Origin: Centroscyllium fabricii
Lineage: Eukaryota
Direction of reading: 5' to 3'
NCBI GenBank assembly: GCA_051313645.2
Contig: JBNRSN020000031.1
Span: 4,030,001-4,094,000 of the forward strand
Length of the DNA: 64,000 nucleotides
In this document: positions 1-9,108 of the stretch, piece after piece
Layout: every line of letters starts with the position of its first letter
Position numbering within the stretch: position 1 is the stretch's first letter
The notes under the pieces: model-generated
Database searches by the model: none
Told to the model about the DNA's origin: nothing
Seen by the model: the letters and a program-made list of their open reading frames with translations, nothing else
Made by a program: the position numbers and the translations under genes

Positions 1-99
1 ATTGCAGGCACCTCCTGAACACCAAGGAACAACACTGTCATTCTGACGAGAGGATCAGGTCAACAGAGTGTGATGAACAGAGCAATACACAAAACACAT

Positions 100-910
100 C
101 ACACCAACACGATCATCAAGTTCGCGGATGACACCATGGTGGTTGGCCAGATCACCAACAACGACGAGTCAGCCTACAGGGATGAGATCCAGCGCCTTGT
201 GGGTTGGTGAAGAGGGTTGGAAGCAGAAGACACACCTCCATCTTCATCCAAGGGGCTGAGGTGGAAAGGGTGTCCAGCTTCAAGTTCCTCGGGGTCCACA
301 TCTCATAAGATCTCTCCTGGTCACTAAACACCTCCTCTCTGGTCAAGAAGGCCCAACAGCGCCTGTACTTCCTAAGGAAGCTGAAGAAAGCCAGGCTGTC
401 ATCCGGCATCCTCTCCAACTTCTACCGCTGCACAATAGAAAGCATACTGACAAGCTGCATCACTGTCTGGTATGGTAATTGCACTATCTCAGACCGGAAA
501 ACCCTGCAGCGGGTAGTCAAAACTGCCCAACGAATTACCGGTACACAGCTACCGTCAATGGAAAGCATCTACCTCAAACGCTGCTTACGGAGGTCTCAGA
601 ACATTATTAAAGACCCCACACACCCCAGCCACAGTCTGTTCGCCCCCCTGCCCTCCGGGAGACGCTACAGAGCAATTTGCACCCGCACGACTAGATTTCA
701 GAACAGCTTCTTCCCCAGGGCTGTCAGCCTCCTGAACTCTAAAAAGAAACTCCGGTACCTGCACGCCTGATAATGTACTTTACTGTATGCAATTTGCATG
801 TCATTTATTTATTTGCACTACTCTCGGGAGAGTCAAGTCTTTGTCTCGTTGTATTGTACTAGTACTCTGCAATGACAATAAAACTTGAATTGAATTGAAT
901 TGAATTGAAC
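100..910 (+). mobile_element. 5'-truncated, degenerate non-LTR retrotransposon (LINE), Rex1/Babar-like: RT C-terminus, 3' UTR and simple-repeat tail
   Basis: Translation from 118 gives KFADDTMVVGQITNNDESAYRDEIQRL (RT FADD motif). After a deletion/frameshift it reads VERVSSFKFLGVHIS*DLSW...KKAQQRLYFLRKL...FYRCTIESILT..ITVWYG, continuing into ORF 558-770 (IIKDPTHPSHSLFAPLPSGRRYR...SFFPRAVSLLN), the C-terminus typical of Rex1/Babar LINEs. AATAAA at 877-882 precedes the tail. Confidence 0.85.
885..909 (+). repeat. (TTGAA)5 microsatellite forming the LINE 3' tail
   Basis: ttgaattgaattgaattgaattgaa directly follows AATAAA; degenerate CTGAAC-like units continue to ~940. Confidence 0.85.
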
Positions 911-1150
911 TTACCTGAACCTAAACCTGAACCTGAATTGTTCACCAATTCAGGAGCATGCTCAGTTTCATACCACACAAGGTCAGGATGAGAGGTCAAA
1001 CCTAGAATTTTCCTTGATTTGTGAACTGTCAAAGGGTGTAGGCGGATCGCTGCCCTAAAATAAACTGTACATCGTTAGTCAAACGTTGAGATAGTTTCAG
1101 TGCTAGTTAAATGCTGAGTTTACTTATATGTTTATCCTACTGAGAACATT

Positions 1151-1381
1151 GAGGGTGATTTCCCCGAAGGTGCAGGAACCTGGCGGGGATTGGTCAGGTT
1201 GAGTTTCTGTCCCGCCCACCCAAGGGCCTGGAAACCCGATGAAATTCTCCTGAAATTGATCAATTAAATCCCCGCCTGACTCAAGTCGGCAATCAAGGAG
1301 TTGCAGCGGGGAACGAGGAGTTTGACAGACAGTTCCAGGGACTGTCTCTTGACAGTTCCCATGGAAACGCAACATTGTGAA
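1151..1381. mobile_element. Left arm of a putative non-autonomous TIR element interrupted by the LTR retrotransposon
   Basis: gggtgatttccc (1153-1164) matches the reverse complement of ggaaaatccccc (6768-6779) at 10/12. The reconstructed empty insertion site is a palindrome. Weak support. Confidence 0.3.
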
Positions 1382-1663
1382 TGTGGTAATCATGATTACC
1401 AGTGTAAATAGTTGAGCACACTACAGACCAGCATGTATAGTGGCTGGGTGCATTGTACATAGTTTTGTATAACGACACTGTCGTGAGGTCAGGTCAGCCA
1501 CATCTCTAACTCCTCCCCTCAGGTGAGTGCCTTATAGGTGGGGTCTGACCTGCCCCCATTCATTCTGTACTCAATGTTCGACTGGAGAGTAGCTCCATTA
1601 TAAAGTGAATAAAAGCCTCTAGTTAAGGTAACTACTCGTCTTTGCTTCATTGACGATACGTCA
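1382..1663 (+). repeat. 5' LTR (282 bp)
   Basis: tgtggtaatc...gatacgtca; matches 6041-6322 apart from 6 substitutions; AATAAA at 1608-1613. Confidence 0.96.
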
Positions 1664-1664
1664 A

Positions 1665-1678
1665 TTTTATTCACTTTA
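1665..1678 (+). promoter_or_regulatory. Atypical primer-binding-site position, complementary to LTR 1601-1614
   Basis: ttttattcacttta is the exact reverse complement of taaagtgaataaaa (1601-1614). The TGG start expected for tRNA-CCA priming is absent. Confidence 0.65.
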
Positions 1679-1686
1679 AAATTAAA

Positions 1687-2877
1687 ATGGAGAGCGGTGC
1701 TGTGAAACCCGAAAAGCTGGATGTCAGTCCACAGGATCCAGACGCCGGCAATATGTTTGAACATAGGTTCAGCCTCATCGAGGCCTACATGGTGGCCGCC
1801 AAGAGGACGACCGACGGGAACAAACTCCACGTTCCCTCGTCCAGGATCTCCAGCCGGGTATACTCCTTCATCTACGATGCAAAAACGTACAAAGAGGCCG
1901 TGGAGAAACTGAAGGCATGCTACGTGCGCCTGGTCCACTCGGTCTACGCCAGACACGTGCTGGTGACCAGACAACAACGGATCGGTGAGTCCAATGAACA
2001 ATATCTGTTGCCGCTCTAAGCCCTCGCTTGGGCCTGTGACTGCCAGGCACGGACGGCGCAGGAGGAGATGAATCTTTTCGTTCGGGACGCCTACGTGACG
2101 GGTATCAGGTTCGGCCACGCCCTCCAGCGGTTGCTGGAGAAAAAGACCTTATCGCTGGAAGAGGCGATCTCCATCTCTAACGCGGTGGATGGAGCACGCC
2201 GCAGACTAGAGGCGTATAGCGGCCAAGGCCCACAAGCCACCCTCGATTCCTGGGTGGCCCCACGATAGGTCGAGACCCCCACAACGGCAGCGGCAGCTGC
2301 GAAGATGCCGGCGGATAAAAGATGTTACTTCTGCGGCCAGGGACTACATCCGCGAGCGAAATGCCCCGCGAGGACCGCGACCTGTGAGAAATGCAGTAAA
2401 AAGGGACATTACGCCAGGGCCTGCAAATCAGCCCCAGCGCCCAGCTCCAGACACAACAGCACGGCTTGTGAGAGCTCCAACGCCAACCCATGGCCTCAGG
2501 TAAGCTGCTGTTGCAGCGCGACCCAGCAGCGGTCCAGGGGTAGAGTACAAGCGCCCCCGTCTCCCACACTGATACGGCAGAGGCTGGGCACGCACACGGC
2601 ATGGGCACCGCCACGCCCAAGGTGGCCGCGGCCGGCCTGGGGTGACCCCCCAACGCCAGCATCTCGCCCAGCACGGCCCGCTGCGTGCGAATCATGTGCG
2701 CCGCCAACTCAGCCACCGCGGCCCACCGCGTGCGAACCACAGGCACCGGCACCGCGTCCACAGCAGCCCGCAGCATGCGAATCATGGGCGCCGCCATCTT
2801 GTCTTCAGCGGCCAGCCATGTGCGACTCCCCGGCGCCGCCATCTTGTCTTCAGCAGCCAGCCATGTGCGACCCCCCC
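1687..2877 (+). pseudogene. gag: gag-like region: capsid-like N-terminus, two CCHC zinc knuckles, Pro-rich repeat; two in-frame stops
   Basis: ORFs 1687-2019, 2068-2268 and 2305-3057 are all in the same frame, separated by TAA (2017-2019) and TAG (2266-2268). CYFCGQGLHPRAKC and CEKCSKKGHYARAC both fit CX2CX4HX4C. Confidence 0.88.
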
Positions 2878-2990
2878 GGCACCGCCATCTTGTCTTCAGC
2901 GGCCAACCATGTGCGACCCACCGGCGCCGCCATCTTGTCCACCGCGGTCGGCCGTGTGCGAATCATGGGCACCGCCATCTTGTGCACGGC
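2680..2990 (+). repeat. 45-bp tandem repeat within gag-pol (15-aa Pro/Cys-rich unit, e.g. CDSPAPPSCLQQPAM)
   Basis: ccgccatctt recurs at 2791, 2836, 2882, 2927 and 2972 (spacings 45, 46, 45, 45); degenerate tgcgaa-anchored units at 2686, 2731 and 2776. Confidence 0.9.
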
Positions 2991-4000
2991 CCCAGCTAGC
3001 AGAGAGCCCCCACACACGCACACACACTTTGACCTTAGCCACAGTCGACCAGGCTAGGCTGCACACACTATCAAATTCCATGATGGCGATTAAAGTTAAC
3101 GGCCATATCACCAACTGCCTGTTCGACACCGGAAGCACAGAGAGCTTCATTCACCCTGACACAGTACCGCGCTACAGACTGCAGACCCTGCCCTCGCACT
3201 ACCAAATCTCCCTCGCTTCAAAGTCCCACACGGCGGACGTCACCGGCTATTGCTCCGTCACGCTCACAGTCAGGGACTGCGTGTACCGTAATTTTAAACT
3301 GTACATATTCCAGCAGTTGTGTGCCCCAGTCTTACTGAGACTGGATTTCCAGTGCCACCTGAAGAGCGTGACAATGGAGTTCGGCGGGACCCTGCCCCCA
3401 CTCGCCGTCAGTAGACGGGAAAATCCCTTTCTAAAGCGGAGCCCGACTTGCGGCCTATCCACCCTGAAAGTCGACCCCCCCTCGCAGTTCGCCAACCTCG
3501 ACCCCAACTGCAAACCCATTGTTACCAAGAGTCGGCGTTACAGTGCAGGGGATCGGGCATTTATCAGGTCGGAGGTTGGGCGTATGCTGCAGGATGGGAT
3601 AATTGAAGCCAGCACCAGCCCCTGGCGGGCCCAGGTCGTAGTGGTTAAGACTGGTGAGAAACTGCGGATGGTGATCGACTACAGCCAGACCATTAACCGC
3701 TACACCGGGCTCGATGCCTATCCCCTTCCCCGCATCTCAGAAATTGTTAACCAGATCGCCCAGTATAAGGTGTTCTCCACAATCGACCTTAAGTCGGCGT
3801 ATCACCAACTCCCGATCCGGAAAGCCGACCGCCCATACACCGCCTTCGAGGCGAACGGTCGGCTCTACCACGTCCTCTGGGTCCCCTTCGACGTGACCAA
3901 CGGAGTGTCGGTATTCCAGAGGGAGATGGAACGTATAGTTGACCAGAACGGGTTGCAGGCTACTTTCCCCTACCTGGACAATGTGACCATCTGCCATCTG
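2878..4000 (+). pseudogene. pol: pol 5' part: aspartic protease and reverse transcriptase
   Basis: Protease CLFDTGSTESFI; RT motifs SPWRAQVVVV, RMVIDYSQTINRYT, DAYPLPRI, FSTIDLKSAYHQ, TAF and YLDN. The frame is broken by a 7-bp duplication (ccatctg twice, 3987-4000). Confidence 0.93.
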
Positions 4001-5927
4001 CGGCCATGACCAGCAGGACCACGATGCCAACCTGGCCAAATTACTCCACACGGCGAAACGGCTCGTTCTCACGTACAATAAAGACAAGTGCGTCTTTAGT
4101 ACAGATCGGCTCGCCATCCTCGGATACATAGTGGAAAATGGGGTCCTTGGCCCCGACCCACAGCGTATGCGCCCCTTACAGGAACTGCCCTTACCTCACA
4201 ACCCCAAAGCCCTAAAGAGATGTCTGGGATTATTTTCCTATTACGCGCAATGGGTTCCCCAGTTCGCGGATAAGGCCAGACCGCTCCTCAAGGCTGCCGT
4301 CTTTCCCCTCTCGGTAGAAGCCCACATGGCATTCGCCCGGATCAAGGAAGATATTATCAAGGCGACCATGGACGCCGTTGATGAGTCCATCCCTTTCCAG
4401 GTGGAGAGTGACGCTTCGGACTTTACCCTTGCCGCCACCCTGAATCAGGCAGGCAGACCCATAGCGTTTTTCTCCCGCAGCCTACAGGGACCCGAAACTC
4501 GCCACTCTGCAGTGGAAAAGGAGGCCCAGGCCATCGTGGAGGCCATGCGCTACTGGCGTCATTACCTGGCCGGTAAGCATTTTACCCTGCTCACCGACCA
4601 ACGGTCGGTCGCGTTTATGTTTAAAAATAAACAAAAGGGTAAAATCAAGAATGATAATATCCTGCAGTGGCGGATCGAGCTCTCGACTTACGAGTATGAC
4701 ATTCTTTATCGACGAGGCAAACTAAATGATCCCCCGGACACACTGTCCAGGAGAACGTGTGCCAGTGCCCAGCTAGACCGGCTGAAGGAACTCCACGATC
4801 GCCTCTGCCACCCGGGTATCACCAGACTTGCCCATTTCGTTAAATCTCGTATCCTCACCTACTCCATCACGGACATCAAGGCTATGACCCGAGAGTGCCC
4901 TGTTTGCGCCGAGTGCAAACCCCAATTTTACAGGCCAGACACAGCACACATCATTAAGGCCACCCGCCACTTTGAACGTCCAAGCGTGGACTTCAAAGGC
5001 ACCCTCACCTCCACCAACCGCAACTCGTACTTCCTCACGGTCGTAGACGAGTTATCCTGCTTCCCCTTTGCCTTCCCCTGCCCAGATATGATGAGCGCAA
5101 TGGTGATCAAACACTTCACCACGTTATTCGCCATTTTCGGTCTCCCCAGCTACATCCATAGCGACCGGGGGTCGTCGTTCATGAGCGACGAACTGCGTCA
5201 GTTTCTGCGTCAGAAAGGGGTTGCCTCAAGCAGAACGACCAGTTACAACCCCCGGGGGAATGGTCAGGTAGAAAGGGAGAACGGGATCATCTGTAAGGTG
5301 GTCAGCCTGGCTCTGAAGTCCAGAGGCCTTCCAGTGCCCCGTTGGCAGGCAGTCCTCCCAGATGCACTCCACTCCATCCACTCTCTGCTGTGTACGGCTA
5401 CCAACGCCACACCTCACGAATTGCTCTTTTCATTCCCCAGGAAGTCAACTTCGGGGACAGCACTCCCACCGTGGCTCACGATGCCGGGGCCGGTCTTGCT
5501 TAGAAAACATGTCAGCGGCCATAAGACTGACCCCCTGGTGGAAAAGGTGCAGCTGCTGTACGCCAACCCGCATTACACCTACGTGCAGTTCCCGGACGGG
5601 CGCAAGGACACAGTTTCCATCAGGGACCTAGCGCCCGCCGGGAGCACCACAGCAGAGCCTCTGGTCGAGCCTCAGCCCGACCAGCCACCACCTACCAACT
5701 ACTGGCCTACACACCAACCACAACCCATTGGATCTTGGCCTATGCACACGCACACACCGGGGCCCCTGACACTACCTGCCGAGAAACAAGAACCAGACGC
5801 CACACCACAGACACAGCTGCCGGAGGACCCGGCCCCGCCGCCACTACCGGCACCAGCAACACTACCAGAACCCCGGCAGTCCTCAAGGCAGACACAACCG
5901 AAAGAGAGACTTATTGTGAACTGTTGA
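4001..5927 (+). pseudogene. pol: pol 3' part: RT thumb, RNase H, integrase (HHCC and DDE), Pro-rich tail
   Basis: GHDQQDHDANL...DKCVF...LGYIV; CLGLFSYY; RNase H VESDASD...EKEAQAIV...TDQRSV; integrase HDRLCHPG...CPVC, VDFKG, HSDRGSSF, GQVERENG; stop at 5925-5927. Confidence 0.94.
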
Positions 5928-6026
5928 GCTGGACTCATACAATAATAACAATAATATGCAAAAAAATATATCTTCCTTCCCTGCATAAACAGGTTCTGTC
6001 CATTCTTCCCGCCGGACTCAATTTTC

Positions 6027-6040
6027 AAAGAAGGGGTGGA
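6027..6040 (+). promoter_or_regulatory. Polypurine tract (plus-strand primer)
   Basis: aaagaaggggtgga lies immediately 5' of the 3' LTR. Confidence 0.85.
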
Positions 6041-6322
6041 TGTGGTAATCATGTTTACCAGTGTAAATAGTTGAGCACACTGCAGACCAGCATGTATAGT
6101 GGCTGGGTGCATTGTACATAGTTTTGTATAACGACACTGTCGTGAGGTCAGGTCAGCCACACCTCTAACTTCTCCCCTCAGGTGCGTGCCTTATAGGTGG
6201 GGTCTGACCTGCCCCCATTCATTCTGTACTCAATGTTCGACTGGAGAGTAGCTCCATTGTAAAGTGAATAAAAGCCTCTAGTTAAGGTAACTACTCGTCT
6301 TTGCTTCATTGACGATACGTCA
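6041..6322 (+). repeat. 3' LTR (282 bp)
   Basis: Direct repeat of 1382-1663 with TG...CA ends. Confidence 0.96.
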
Positions 6323-6780
6323 GTGACATCACAATGGATTGCAACCAATCGCAAAGGCCAAGTACTTTGAGTGACAGTTGGATGGTCGGGCTGCAAATCT
6401 TTGACTGGTAGGGAGCGTCTCTCAATTGATTTGTCAAGGTAAGGTTTTTAAAATTTTTCTCCATAGCTGGTCTTCACCCAAGGGAGTCACTTACAACCTC
6501 CAGGGTGTTGAAGGCCTGGAAGGCATTCTGCTCTAGGTCCTTCAATGCCTTGAAGGTGAAAGTGAACAAGGCCACTGTGCTCCCGCTGGGTTTCACCAGC
6601 GGGGTTTCAGGATGGTGGGATTTGGTGGGAAGGGGTTTAAAATAGGTGAGGGCCCTTAAAATGGAATTATGCAGTCCAATTAAGGGCTCTCAATTACCTC
6701 AAAGAGCATCCCTGCCGGCTCCACGATTTAAGGGCCAGCCCGGCGGAAAGCCCCCGTCACGGAGCAAGGAAAATCCCCCC
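6323..6780. mobile_element. Right arm of the putative non-autonomous TIR element
   Basis: Ends in ggaaaatcccccc, a weak inverted match to 1153-1164; no credible coding potential. Confidence 0.3.
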
Positions 6781-7309
6781 ATGTACAAAAAAGGTTTAAA
6801 AGTAAAGCTTAACATTTTTCTTTTAAAAGAAATGGGATGTAACATTTGTACATTGAGTTATCATTGGCCCACAGGCATCTGTAAGGACTATCTATTATAT
6901 TCACGTAATCACATGCTGAGTTATCATTGTCCCAGAGGCATCTGTAAGGACGAACTATTATATTCACGTAATCACATGCTGAGTTATTATTGGCCCACAG
7001 GCATCTGTAAAGACTACCTATCATATTCACGTAATCACATGATGAGTTATCATTGTCCCACAGGCATCTGTAAGGACTACCTATTATATTCACGTAATCA
7101 CATGCTGAGTTATCATTGGTCCACACCAATCTGTAAGGACTACCTATTATATTCACGTAATCACATGCTGAGTTATCATTGGCCCACAGGCATCTGTAAG
7201 GACTACCTATTATATTCACGTAATCACATGCTGAGTTATCATTGGACCACACCAATCTGTAAGGACTACCTATTATATTCACGTAATCACATGCTGAGTT
7301 ATCATTGGC

Positions 7310-7940
7310 CCACAGGCATCTGTAAGGACTACCTATTATATTCACATAATCACATGCTGAATTATCATTGGCCCAAAGGCATCTGTAAGGACAACCTATT
7401 ATACTCACGTAATCACATGCGGAGATATCATTGGTCCACAGGCATCTGTAAGGACTACCTATTATATTCACGTAATCACATGCTGAGTTATCATTGGCCC
7501 ACAGGCATCTGTAAGGACTACCTATTATATTCACGTAATCACATGCTGAGTTATCATTGGCCCAGAGGCATCTGTAAGGACTACCTATTGTATTCACGTA
7601 ATCACACGCTGAGTTATCATTGGCCCACAGGCATCTGTAAGGACTACCTATTATATTCACATAATCACATGCTGAATTATCATTGGCCCACAGGCATCTG
7701 TAAGGACAACCTATTATACTCACGTAATCACATGCGGAGATATCATTGGTCCACAGGCATCTGTAAGGACTACCTATTATATTCACGTAATCACATGCTG
7801 ACTTATCATTGGCCCACAGGCATCTGTAAGGACTACCTATTATATTCACGTAATCACATGCTGAGTTATCATTGGCCCAGAGGCATCTGTAAGGACTACC
7901 TATTGTATTCACGTAATCACACGCTGAGTTATCATTGGCC
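7310..7940. repeat. 315-bp (5-monomer) higher-order repeat, 2 copies
   Basis: Diagnostic ggagatatcattggtcc at 7421 and 7736; cccagagg...tattgtattcacgtaatcacacgct at 7561 and 7876. Confidence 0.85.
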
Positions 7941-8184
7941 CACAGGCATCTGTAAGGACTACCTATTATATTCACGTAATCACATGCTGAGTTATCATTG
8001 GCCCACAGGCATCTGTAAGGACTGCTATTGTATACACGTAATCACATGCTGAATTATCATTGGCCCACAGGCTTCTGTAAGGACTACCTATTATATTCAC
8101 GTAATCACATGCTGAATTATCATTGGCCCACAGGCATATGTAAGGACTACCTATTATATTCACGTAATCACATGCTGAGTTATC

Positions 8185-8432
8185 CAAAGATGTGCGGGTT
8201 ACGTTGATTGGCCAGGATAAATTGATCCTTAGTGTTAGGGGGATTAAATATGTGGGGTTACAGGGATAGGGTGGGATATGTGTTGATGCAGGCTCAATAG
8301 GGATCGAGCGATATGGGGAGAGGGCATTGGTGGGGTACTGGGTTTGGATGATCAGCCATGATCTCATTGAATGGCGGAGCAGGCTCGAAGGGCCGAATGG
8401 CCTACTCCTGCTTCTAGTTTCTATGTTTCTAT
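8185..8432 (+). mobile_element. 5'-truncated HE1-like V-SINE with CR1-derived 3' tail, inserted in the satellite
   Basis: Starts caaagatgtgcgggttacgttgattggcc (end of the V-domain) and ends ...gaatggcctactcctgcttctagtttctatgtttctatg. 6-bp target-site duplication gttatc at 8179-8184 and 8433-8438. Confidence 0.88.
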
Positions 8433-8704
8433 GTTATCATTGGCCCACAGGCATCTGTAAGGACTACTATTGTACTCACGTAATCACATGCTGAGTTATC
8501 ATTGGCCCACAGGCATCTGTAAGGACTACCTATTATATTCATGTAATCACATGCTGAGTTATCATTGGCCCACAGGCATCTGTAAGGACTACTATTATAT
8601 TCACATAATCACATGCTGAGTTTTCATTGGCCCACAGGCATCTGTAAGGACTACCTATTATATTCACGTAATCACATGCTGAGTTATCATTGACCAACAG
8701 GCAT

Positions 8705-9108
8705 AGTAACATAGAAACATAGAAACTAGGAGCAGGAGTAGGCCATTTGGCCCTTCGAGCCTGCTCCGCCATTCAATGAGATCATGGCTGATCATCGAAA
8801 CCCAGCACCCTGTCCCTGCACTCCCCCATATCCCTCGATCCCTATCGAGCCTGCATTGACACATATCCCACTCTATCCCCGTAACCCCATATATTCAATC
8901 CCCCGAACAATAAGGTTCAATTTACCATGGCCAATCAACCTAACCCGCATATGTTTGGACTGTGGGAGGAAACCGGAGCACCCGGAGGAAACCCACGCAG
9001 ACACGGGGAGAATGTGCAAACTCCACACAGATAGTACCCGAGGCTAGATTTGAACCCGGGTCTCCAGTGCTGCGAGACAACAGTGCTAAGCACTGTGCTA
9101 TGGTGCCA
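8705..9108 (-). mobile_element. Full-length tRNA-derived V-SINE (HE1-like) with CR1-derived 3' tail, inserted in the satellite
   Basis: Minus strand shows a tRNA-like head with A-box-like tagcacagtgc and B-box ggttcaaatct (9046-9056); V-domain gtggagtttgcacattctccccgtgtctgcgtgggtttcctccgggtgctccggtttcctcccacagtccaaa; (TTTCTATG)n tail. The satellite is interrupted at ggcat/catctg. Confidence 0.92.

Follow-up and report, generated by a model that had tools for sequence, protein, structure and literature searches.

The element near the start of the window (the whole 64,000-nucleotide stretch of DNA analyzed here) raises the question of how an LTR retrotransposon starts reverse transcription when it carries no binding site for a tRNA primer. 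To our knowledge, yeast Tf1 is the one element for which self-primed reverse transcription has been proven, and among Ty3/Gypsy elements the trait is treated as a mark of the Tf1/sushi chromoviruses. A preliminary description of this DNA noted that the leader of the element pairs with its own 5' LTR, and proposed two roles for the pairing: self-priming outside the chromodomain-bearing Tf1/sushi group, and suppression of premature polyadenylation at the 5' LTR. Here we report that the fold at the primer site is real, clade-wide and strongly covarying. Members of the lineage pair a site two bases past the 5' LTR with an LTR segment over about 13 bases, and, as far as comparison of sequences can tell, this duplex is likely to be a self-primer that replaces the tRNA.

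The element lies on the forward strand and has all the features of a Ty3/Gypsy LTR retrotransposon: TG...CA LTRs, a target duplication, a polypurine tract and the order gag, protease, reverse transcriptase (RT), RNase H and integrase. Its best solved relative is the Ty3 Gag-Pol (E 1e-105). The 5' LTR (1382-1663, 282 nt) differs from the 3' LTR (6041-6322) by 6 mismatches, and the target-site duplication GTGAA on the left (1377-1381) agrees with GTGAC on the right (6323-6327) at 4 of 5 bases; relatives have perfect 5-bp target duplications. gag (1687-3057) encodes two CX2CX4HX4C fingers and contains a 45-nt tandem repeat (2787-2939). It is followed by the protease and the first part of RT with a YLDN motif (3071-4006), just past which the frame is broken, by the remaining RT, RNase H and an integrase without a chromodomain (3987-5927), and by the polypurine tract (6027-6040), which is found at the same location in relatives. 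The window's copy is broken: gag has two in-frame stops (2017-2019 and 2266-2268), and the frame is interrupted in the gag-protease region and again in RT. Its RNase H keeps the DASD, EKEA, TDQ and DTLSR motifs, and the acidic residues of this domain, invariant in 46 relatives, are kept here as well. GC-rich tandem repeats of 45 and 92 nt (2628-2983) lengthen the spacer between gag and protease, which is long in P0003 and P0004, its closest relatives, as well.

The LTR segment at 1601-1614 (TAAAGTGAATAAAA; hereafter the LTR arm, the predicted self-primer) is the exact reverse complement of 1665-1678 (14/14), the putative primer-binding site, and when the pairing is extended to 1597-1614/1665-1682, 17 of 18 positions pair. 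The preliminary description placed this complementarity one base past the 5' LTR, and its coordinates are right: a single unpaired A at 1664 is the sole spacer. It was also correct in that no TGG follows the LTR end, that 23 nt of leader separate the LTR from the gag ATG (at 1687), and that the arm contains a poly(A) signal; AATAAA at 1608-1613 is the only AATAAA/ATTAAA of the LTR and lies within the arm. The 3' LTR holds a copy of the arm at 6260-6273, with its AATAAA at 6267-6272. When the leader was shuffled, 14 bp were reached once in 3000 trials, and none of 1500 LTR shuffles exceeded 11 bp. Among 4353 internal 24-nt segments, at least 10 bp were obtained only in six, starting at 1664-1669. 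The pairing probabilities in the 14-bp stem are 0.81-1.0 for 13 pairs and 0.6 for the last. Two small structures are predicted to flank the arm: an inverted repeat TGGAG/CTCCA just 5' of it (1583-1597), whose arms recur with different loop letters in loose ends of related copies, and a 4-bp hairpin GCCT/AGGT with a 7-nt loop (1615-1629), which starts at the first base past the arm. An Rfam scan returned only SNORA58, a chance match (E 0.89), and ARAGORN detected no tRNA in the window or in the loci of relatives.

Relatives were collected with a degenerate pattern of the gag start, which gave 70 loci, all confirmed by tblastn. Together with the window they make 71 sequences, and the 67 with at least 95 nt upstream of the ATG were counted (L022, L034, L046 and L055 have less and were left out). 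These 67 fall into 32 LTR-leader families, each represented by the member whose reading frame is longest, so that the stem played no part in the choice. With the pol region as a query we obtained 675 proteins; most are gag-pol polyproteins encoded in one frame, about 1200 aa long, which carry two CCHC fingers and either YLDN or YLDD. The gag query gave 4532 protein cluster representatives (50% clustering) with HMMER; a word-based homolog search using the gag start gave no match. Named matches come from a ray, a shrimp, a woodlouse, a sea anemone and whipworms, the best of them, at 72% identity, being that of an electric ray, which makes a cartilaginous fish the probable host. Contigs from 4 of 19 listed sequencing runs, none of RNA being on the list, point to a very high abundance of the family in two organisms and gave neither RNA ends nor usable phased covariation. 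No lineage member was found in the viral contigs that we scanned with the family alignment and the gag motif. In most members YLDN, YIDN, YMDN or YVDN replaces YxDD in intact frames, the others having YLDD, and the switch between YxDD and YxDN seems recurrent across the clade. Three copies (L068, L069 and L070) are animal retrotransposon sequences in records titled as bacterial MAGs, probably through host contamination.

Whether the two arms covary in related elements, or lose their complementarity there, had been named in the preliminary description among the checks and possible refutations of its reading. The stem is kept in 28 of the 32 families, with strong compensatory change across them: it starts two bases past a CA and has 11 or 12 of 12 pairs, a result obtained in 1 of 640 shuffles and in 31 of 756 cross-family combinations. 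Counted by individual sequences, 59 of 67 have at least 12 of 14 pairs. In an alignment of the 28 families, 87% of the cells are paired over 18 positions, and sliding gives 31-48%. Changes on both sides occur at 16 of the 18 pairs, a level that none of 500 shuffles reached; because positions 1-12 served to select the families and the families are related, the shuffle counts here and above are not probabilities. RNAalifold, unaided, predicted a 13-bp helix with 11 compensatory pairs. Beyond the stretch by which the families were chosen, position 13 is paired in 26 of 28, where 14.0 would be expected, and at positions 14-16 pairing also exceeds chance (p about 0.01), a weak extension to position 16. 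In L007, compared with its siblings, pair 7 has undergone a double change of the G:T to T:A style that is present in both LTRs and in the primer site, and L026 and L053 have a G:C pair within an otherwise constant run of A.

The stem is incomplete or missing in four of the 32 families. In L008 and L023 no LTR can be recognised upstream; L032 forms 10 of 12 pairs, and its relative L051 has 16; L029 keeps the primer site and the hairpin, and no complementary arm was found in its locus. The L029 copy appears to start two bases 5' of the predicted cut site, at about 120 nt from the beginning of gag. Some mismatches persist, at pair 2 in L004 and L031 and, in one family, at pair 14 in 5 of its 10 copies. 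In the X1 contigs, arm variants occur at 1607 (27% of the depth) and 1609 (29%), and a partner change in the primer site is absent among the changes listed, in which short contigs clip diverged ends.

The stem has a fixed position relative to the LTR. In three families whose perfect 5-bp duplications fix the end of the LTR, the stem starts at LTR+2. The boundary on the LTR side is sharp: the flanking base, corresponding to A1664, is A in 27 of 28 families and is Watson-Crick paired in none of the 28. The distance from the stem to the ATG varies from 16 to 38 nt, and that between the arms from 33 to 76 nt. TGG is found at the site in none of the 28 families and their 13-mers are of 27 different kinds, which rules out one shared tRNA. 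A hairpin of at least 4 bp starts at the first base past the arm in 20 of 28 families, compared with about 8% when the loop is shuffled. Pairs 1 and 3 do not vary, and pair 10 (alignment A2, columns 11 and 106), whose neighbours vary freely, is a G:C in 26 of the 28; these constant positions point to recognition by a protein besides pairing. The G:C at pair 10 may reflect an enzyme contact or an initiator-like TTAGT.

Tf1-like self-priming is the best reading because the fold has the geometry that we would expect of a primer site. In Tf1, the first 11 bases anneal to the primer site, and the RNase H cut falls between bases 11 and 12, according to the available text of PMC7175516. In the present lineage, the LTR arm would pair with the site at LTR+2 and act as the primer for reverse transcription, with no tRNA. 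RNase H would then cut at the 3' end of the arm (here between 1614 and 1615), as in Tf1; we infer this and all other steps past the folding. Copying of the primer during plus-strand synthesis would write the primer site anew, by which the two arms would stay matched. In the 16 of 28 families whose arm contains AATAAA or ATTAAA, the copy of the arm in the 3' LTR, where it has no local partner, would double as the poly(A) signal and set the RNA end just past the hairpin, so that the short repeat required for the jump would remain; this dual use may explain the A-rich end of the arm. Judged against the TATA and initiator consensus motifs and their spacing, a candidate TATA-like box at 1533 and, 29 nt later, an initiator-like motif (TCATTCT, 1560-1566) suggest that the RNA of this copy starts at 1562, 39 nt before the arm; in relatives the distance is not fixed, and no promoter motif was found at a fixed distance. 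With a start at 1562, the primer may be a longer capped piece that is paired only at its 3' end.

The other role raised in the preliminary description, suppression of polyadenylation, has a precedent in HIV-1, whose polyA hairpin likewise holds AAUAAA in a duplex at the 5' end (PMC2645353, in its available part). We consider it improbable that the duplex mainly hides the poly(A) signal of the 5' LTR in this way and that priming is done by something not yet seen. The suggestion does suit the window's copy, in which the prediction has every base of the hexamer paired at the 5' end and leaves most of it free in the 3' LTR (unpaired probability 0.37-0.88), and the 16 families with a canonical hexamer in the duplex. 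The data do not support it as a general function, however: 12 of the 28 arms have no canonical hexamer, one of them in a mutated copy of a hexamer-bearing family, and 4 of the 12 have it in the loop, outside the duplex. In L026 and L053 the hexamer has become TGAAGA and the pair has been retained. Masking would not require a start fixed at CA+2, and it would leave the element with no primer site. In HIV a hairpin is formed at each of the two ends and the primer is a tRNA, whereas the partner strand here is the primer site and is present at the 5' end only. Since so many arms do without the hexamer, and L026 and L053 broke it and kept the pair, masking is likely to be a by-product.

The primer could also be the arm copy of the 3' LTR, that is, the 3' end of the same or a co-packaged RNA, and not a cut 5' piece. 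Most copies that were checked have the same arm in either LTR, the constant A-rich end of the arm looks like a 3' end, and no conserved promoter marks it as a 5' end. We nevertheless give this reading little chance of being right: in this LTR the stretch upstream of the arm contains no poly(A) hexamer, the templated G:C at position 2 cannot derive from a poly(A) tail, an RNA ending at the arm would lose the repeat for strand transfer, and the local fold at the 5' end is strongly favoured in the predictions. That the stem is a translation or packaging switch near the gag start, with a tRNA fragment or a protein priming elsewhere, would suit the very short leader, the stems of L041 and L059 that reach the ATG, and the weak extension of the pairing to position 16; it is very unlikely, since the stem is fixed at its LTR side and lies at a variable distance (16-38 nt) from the ATG, and 27 different sequences cannot fit one tRNA fragment. 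Chance pairing can practically be dismissed, for although the arms are AT-rich and the 181-nt region as a whole is not unusually stable (z -1.71), it is refuted by the covariation, and the shuffle controls and the pairing probabilities also speak against it.

Self-priming by the LTR arm, the reading that we prefer, would place the lineage beside several known systems. Tf1 and Tf2 of Schizosaccharomyces pombe, Tj1 and the Tf1/sushi elements likewise have no tRNA site, a primer site that abuts the 5' LTR and complements an LTR segment, and the Ty3/Gypsy order with RNase H (available parts of PMC7175516, PMC4600332 and bioRxiv 2022.12.06.519325). The present lineage differs from Tf1/sushi in having no chromodomain or Tf2-type SH3, a double CCHC gag, YLDN in most members, a leader of just 16-38 nt, an arm that often overlaps the poly(A) hexamer and a long separate RT branch. 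Its core duplex is 13 bp, compared with 11 in Tf1, and while the Tf1 primer is the first 11 bases, the start suggested for the present copy lies well upstream of the arm. In place of the three-duplex pretzel of Tf1, which was not seen here, the consensus fold is one helix and the per-family folds have a local hairpin right past the predicted cut, although poorly aligned loops could hide weak helices.

Among plant elements, self-priming has been predicted from complementarity between LTR and PBS for Tcn1 (Gypsy) and for TAR, Houba and Osr-1 (Copia), TAR being a case of the trait outside chromoviruses, and the accessible text of this source names no self-primer among non-chromovirus Gypsy elements (PMC6317226). 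Tcn1 groups with Tf1/sushi and TAR is a Copia element, both from plants, in contrast to the present animal lineage. Skipper of Dictyostelium, also Gypsy, has a pyrimidine-rich stretch instead of TGG, but it carries a chromodomain and has no complementary LTR region (PMC5006619, available portion). The literature that we found ties self-priming to Tf1/sushi, plant Tcn1 and Copia TAR and holds nothing for the present lineage, although an earlier mention is possible. As a lead to its identity we take the Cigr-1 clade (Ciona, molluscs), in which Cigr-1 has short LTRs, a single ORF of about 1200 codons, a SURL-like gag and a non-Mag RT that presumably fit the relatives, or a MolGy clade. The motifs of the clade were not found in the accessible parts of the supplements of PMC6238403, PMC8556966 and PMC11673190, and it could be named in other supplements.

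A Pfam scan of the window returned no chromodomain, as the preliminary description had said. Neither the window nor any of the 10 relatives scanned in full gave a match to a chromodomain or to a Tf2-type SH3, and no chromodomain is among the precomputed domains of 120 hits. Both domains were found in the control elements L073, L077 and L078, two of which have a 9-bp stem before gag and one of which has none, all lying on circular contigs in which the LTR ends are undefined. An RT-RNase H tree was built from 36 rows. Its 26 members of the lineage fall into one group (100/100), set off by a long stem from the remaining ten, which are other Gypsy elements, and the clade lies outside four chromovirus-type rows (99/95), three with a chromodomain and one, L079, grouped by sequence only. 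A 22-row tree, from which 14 rows including the window's were left out, rejects nesting with either chromovirus pair (p-AU 0.040 and 0.007) and is compatible with a sister position (0.12); the references are few and unnamed, and there is a long-branch risk. It seems that the clade is not nested among the four sampled chromovirus-type sequences, and that it may work like Tf1 without being filed as a Tf1/sushi member.

The Mag lineage (Mag, SURL) has two CCHC fingers in gag. In calling the element Mag-like, the preliminary description was right about these fingers, but the RT motifs, compared by eye, differ from those of SURL as printed, as they do from those of Sushi-ichi and Maggy. Of the RT phylogeny that it envisaged, the side toward Tf1/sushi is represented in the tree by the four unnamed chromovirus-type rows, outside which the clade lies; the Mag/SURL side was compared by eye on motifs. 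Its main proposal, self-priming outside the chromodomain-bearing Tf1/sushi group, appears well supported by the covariation, the geometry and the RT-RNase H tree, all of which are drawn from sequence. Troyka/Kuafuorterviruses were considered and rejected; they have CG...CG ends, a 3-bp duplication and IADD, VADD or LADD, compared with TG...CA, 5 bp and YLDN or YLDD here (available text of PMC12440569 and PMC11673190).

An independent origin of the mechanism in an animal lineage is a possibility that we put forward tentatively. A poly(A) signal would have been turned into a primer, the RNA would start well upstream of it, and the internal cut would be set by the junction of helix and hairpin, with a constant run of A and a G:C ten bases back, so that the same 14 bases would be the primer in the 5' LTR and the poly(A) signal in the 3' LTR. 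If the lineage self-primes, independence from tRNA would be far commoner in animals than thought and would probably have more than one origin, and these elements would be expected to escape silencing by tRNA fragments. The 28 natural variants define a compact RNA module of 70-110 nt that lends itself to direct assay in vitro, its cut site being predicted and some of its positions constant, and they offer an annotation rule for elements currently listed without a PBS.

As for the surroundings, the element sits just beyond the edge of a 63-bp satellite array (6854-64000; about 21 + 4 + 875 copies, about 90% alike), whose higher-order repeats of about 1.9 kb are visible in the ORF list. Within the satellite, at 8183-8959, long stretches of 136 and 121 nt are paired with inverted counterparts (about 90%); these appear to be SINE-like pieces that run in opposite directions. 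The first 910 bases of the window (1-910) are the 3' end of a non-LTR retrotransposon (ALKBH8_N Pfam match, E 1e-19) that terminates in (TGAAT)n. Among the other loci, L071 carries on its reverse strand (329-7489) a Gypsy polyprotein of 2387 aa that combines, in one frame, two CCHC fingers with a baculovirus F-like domain.
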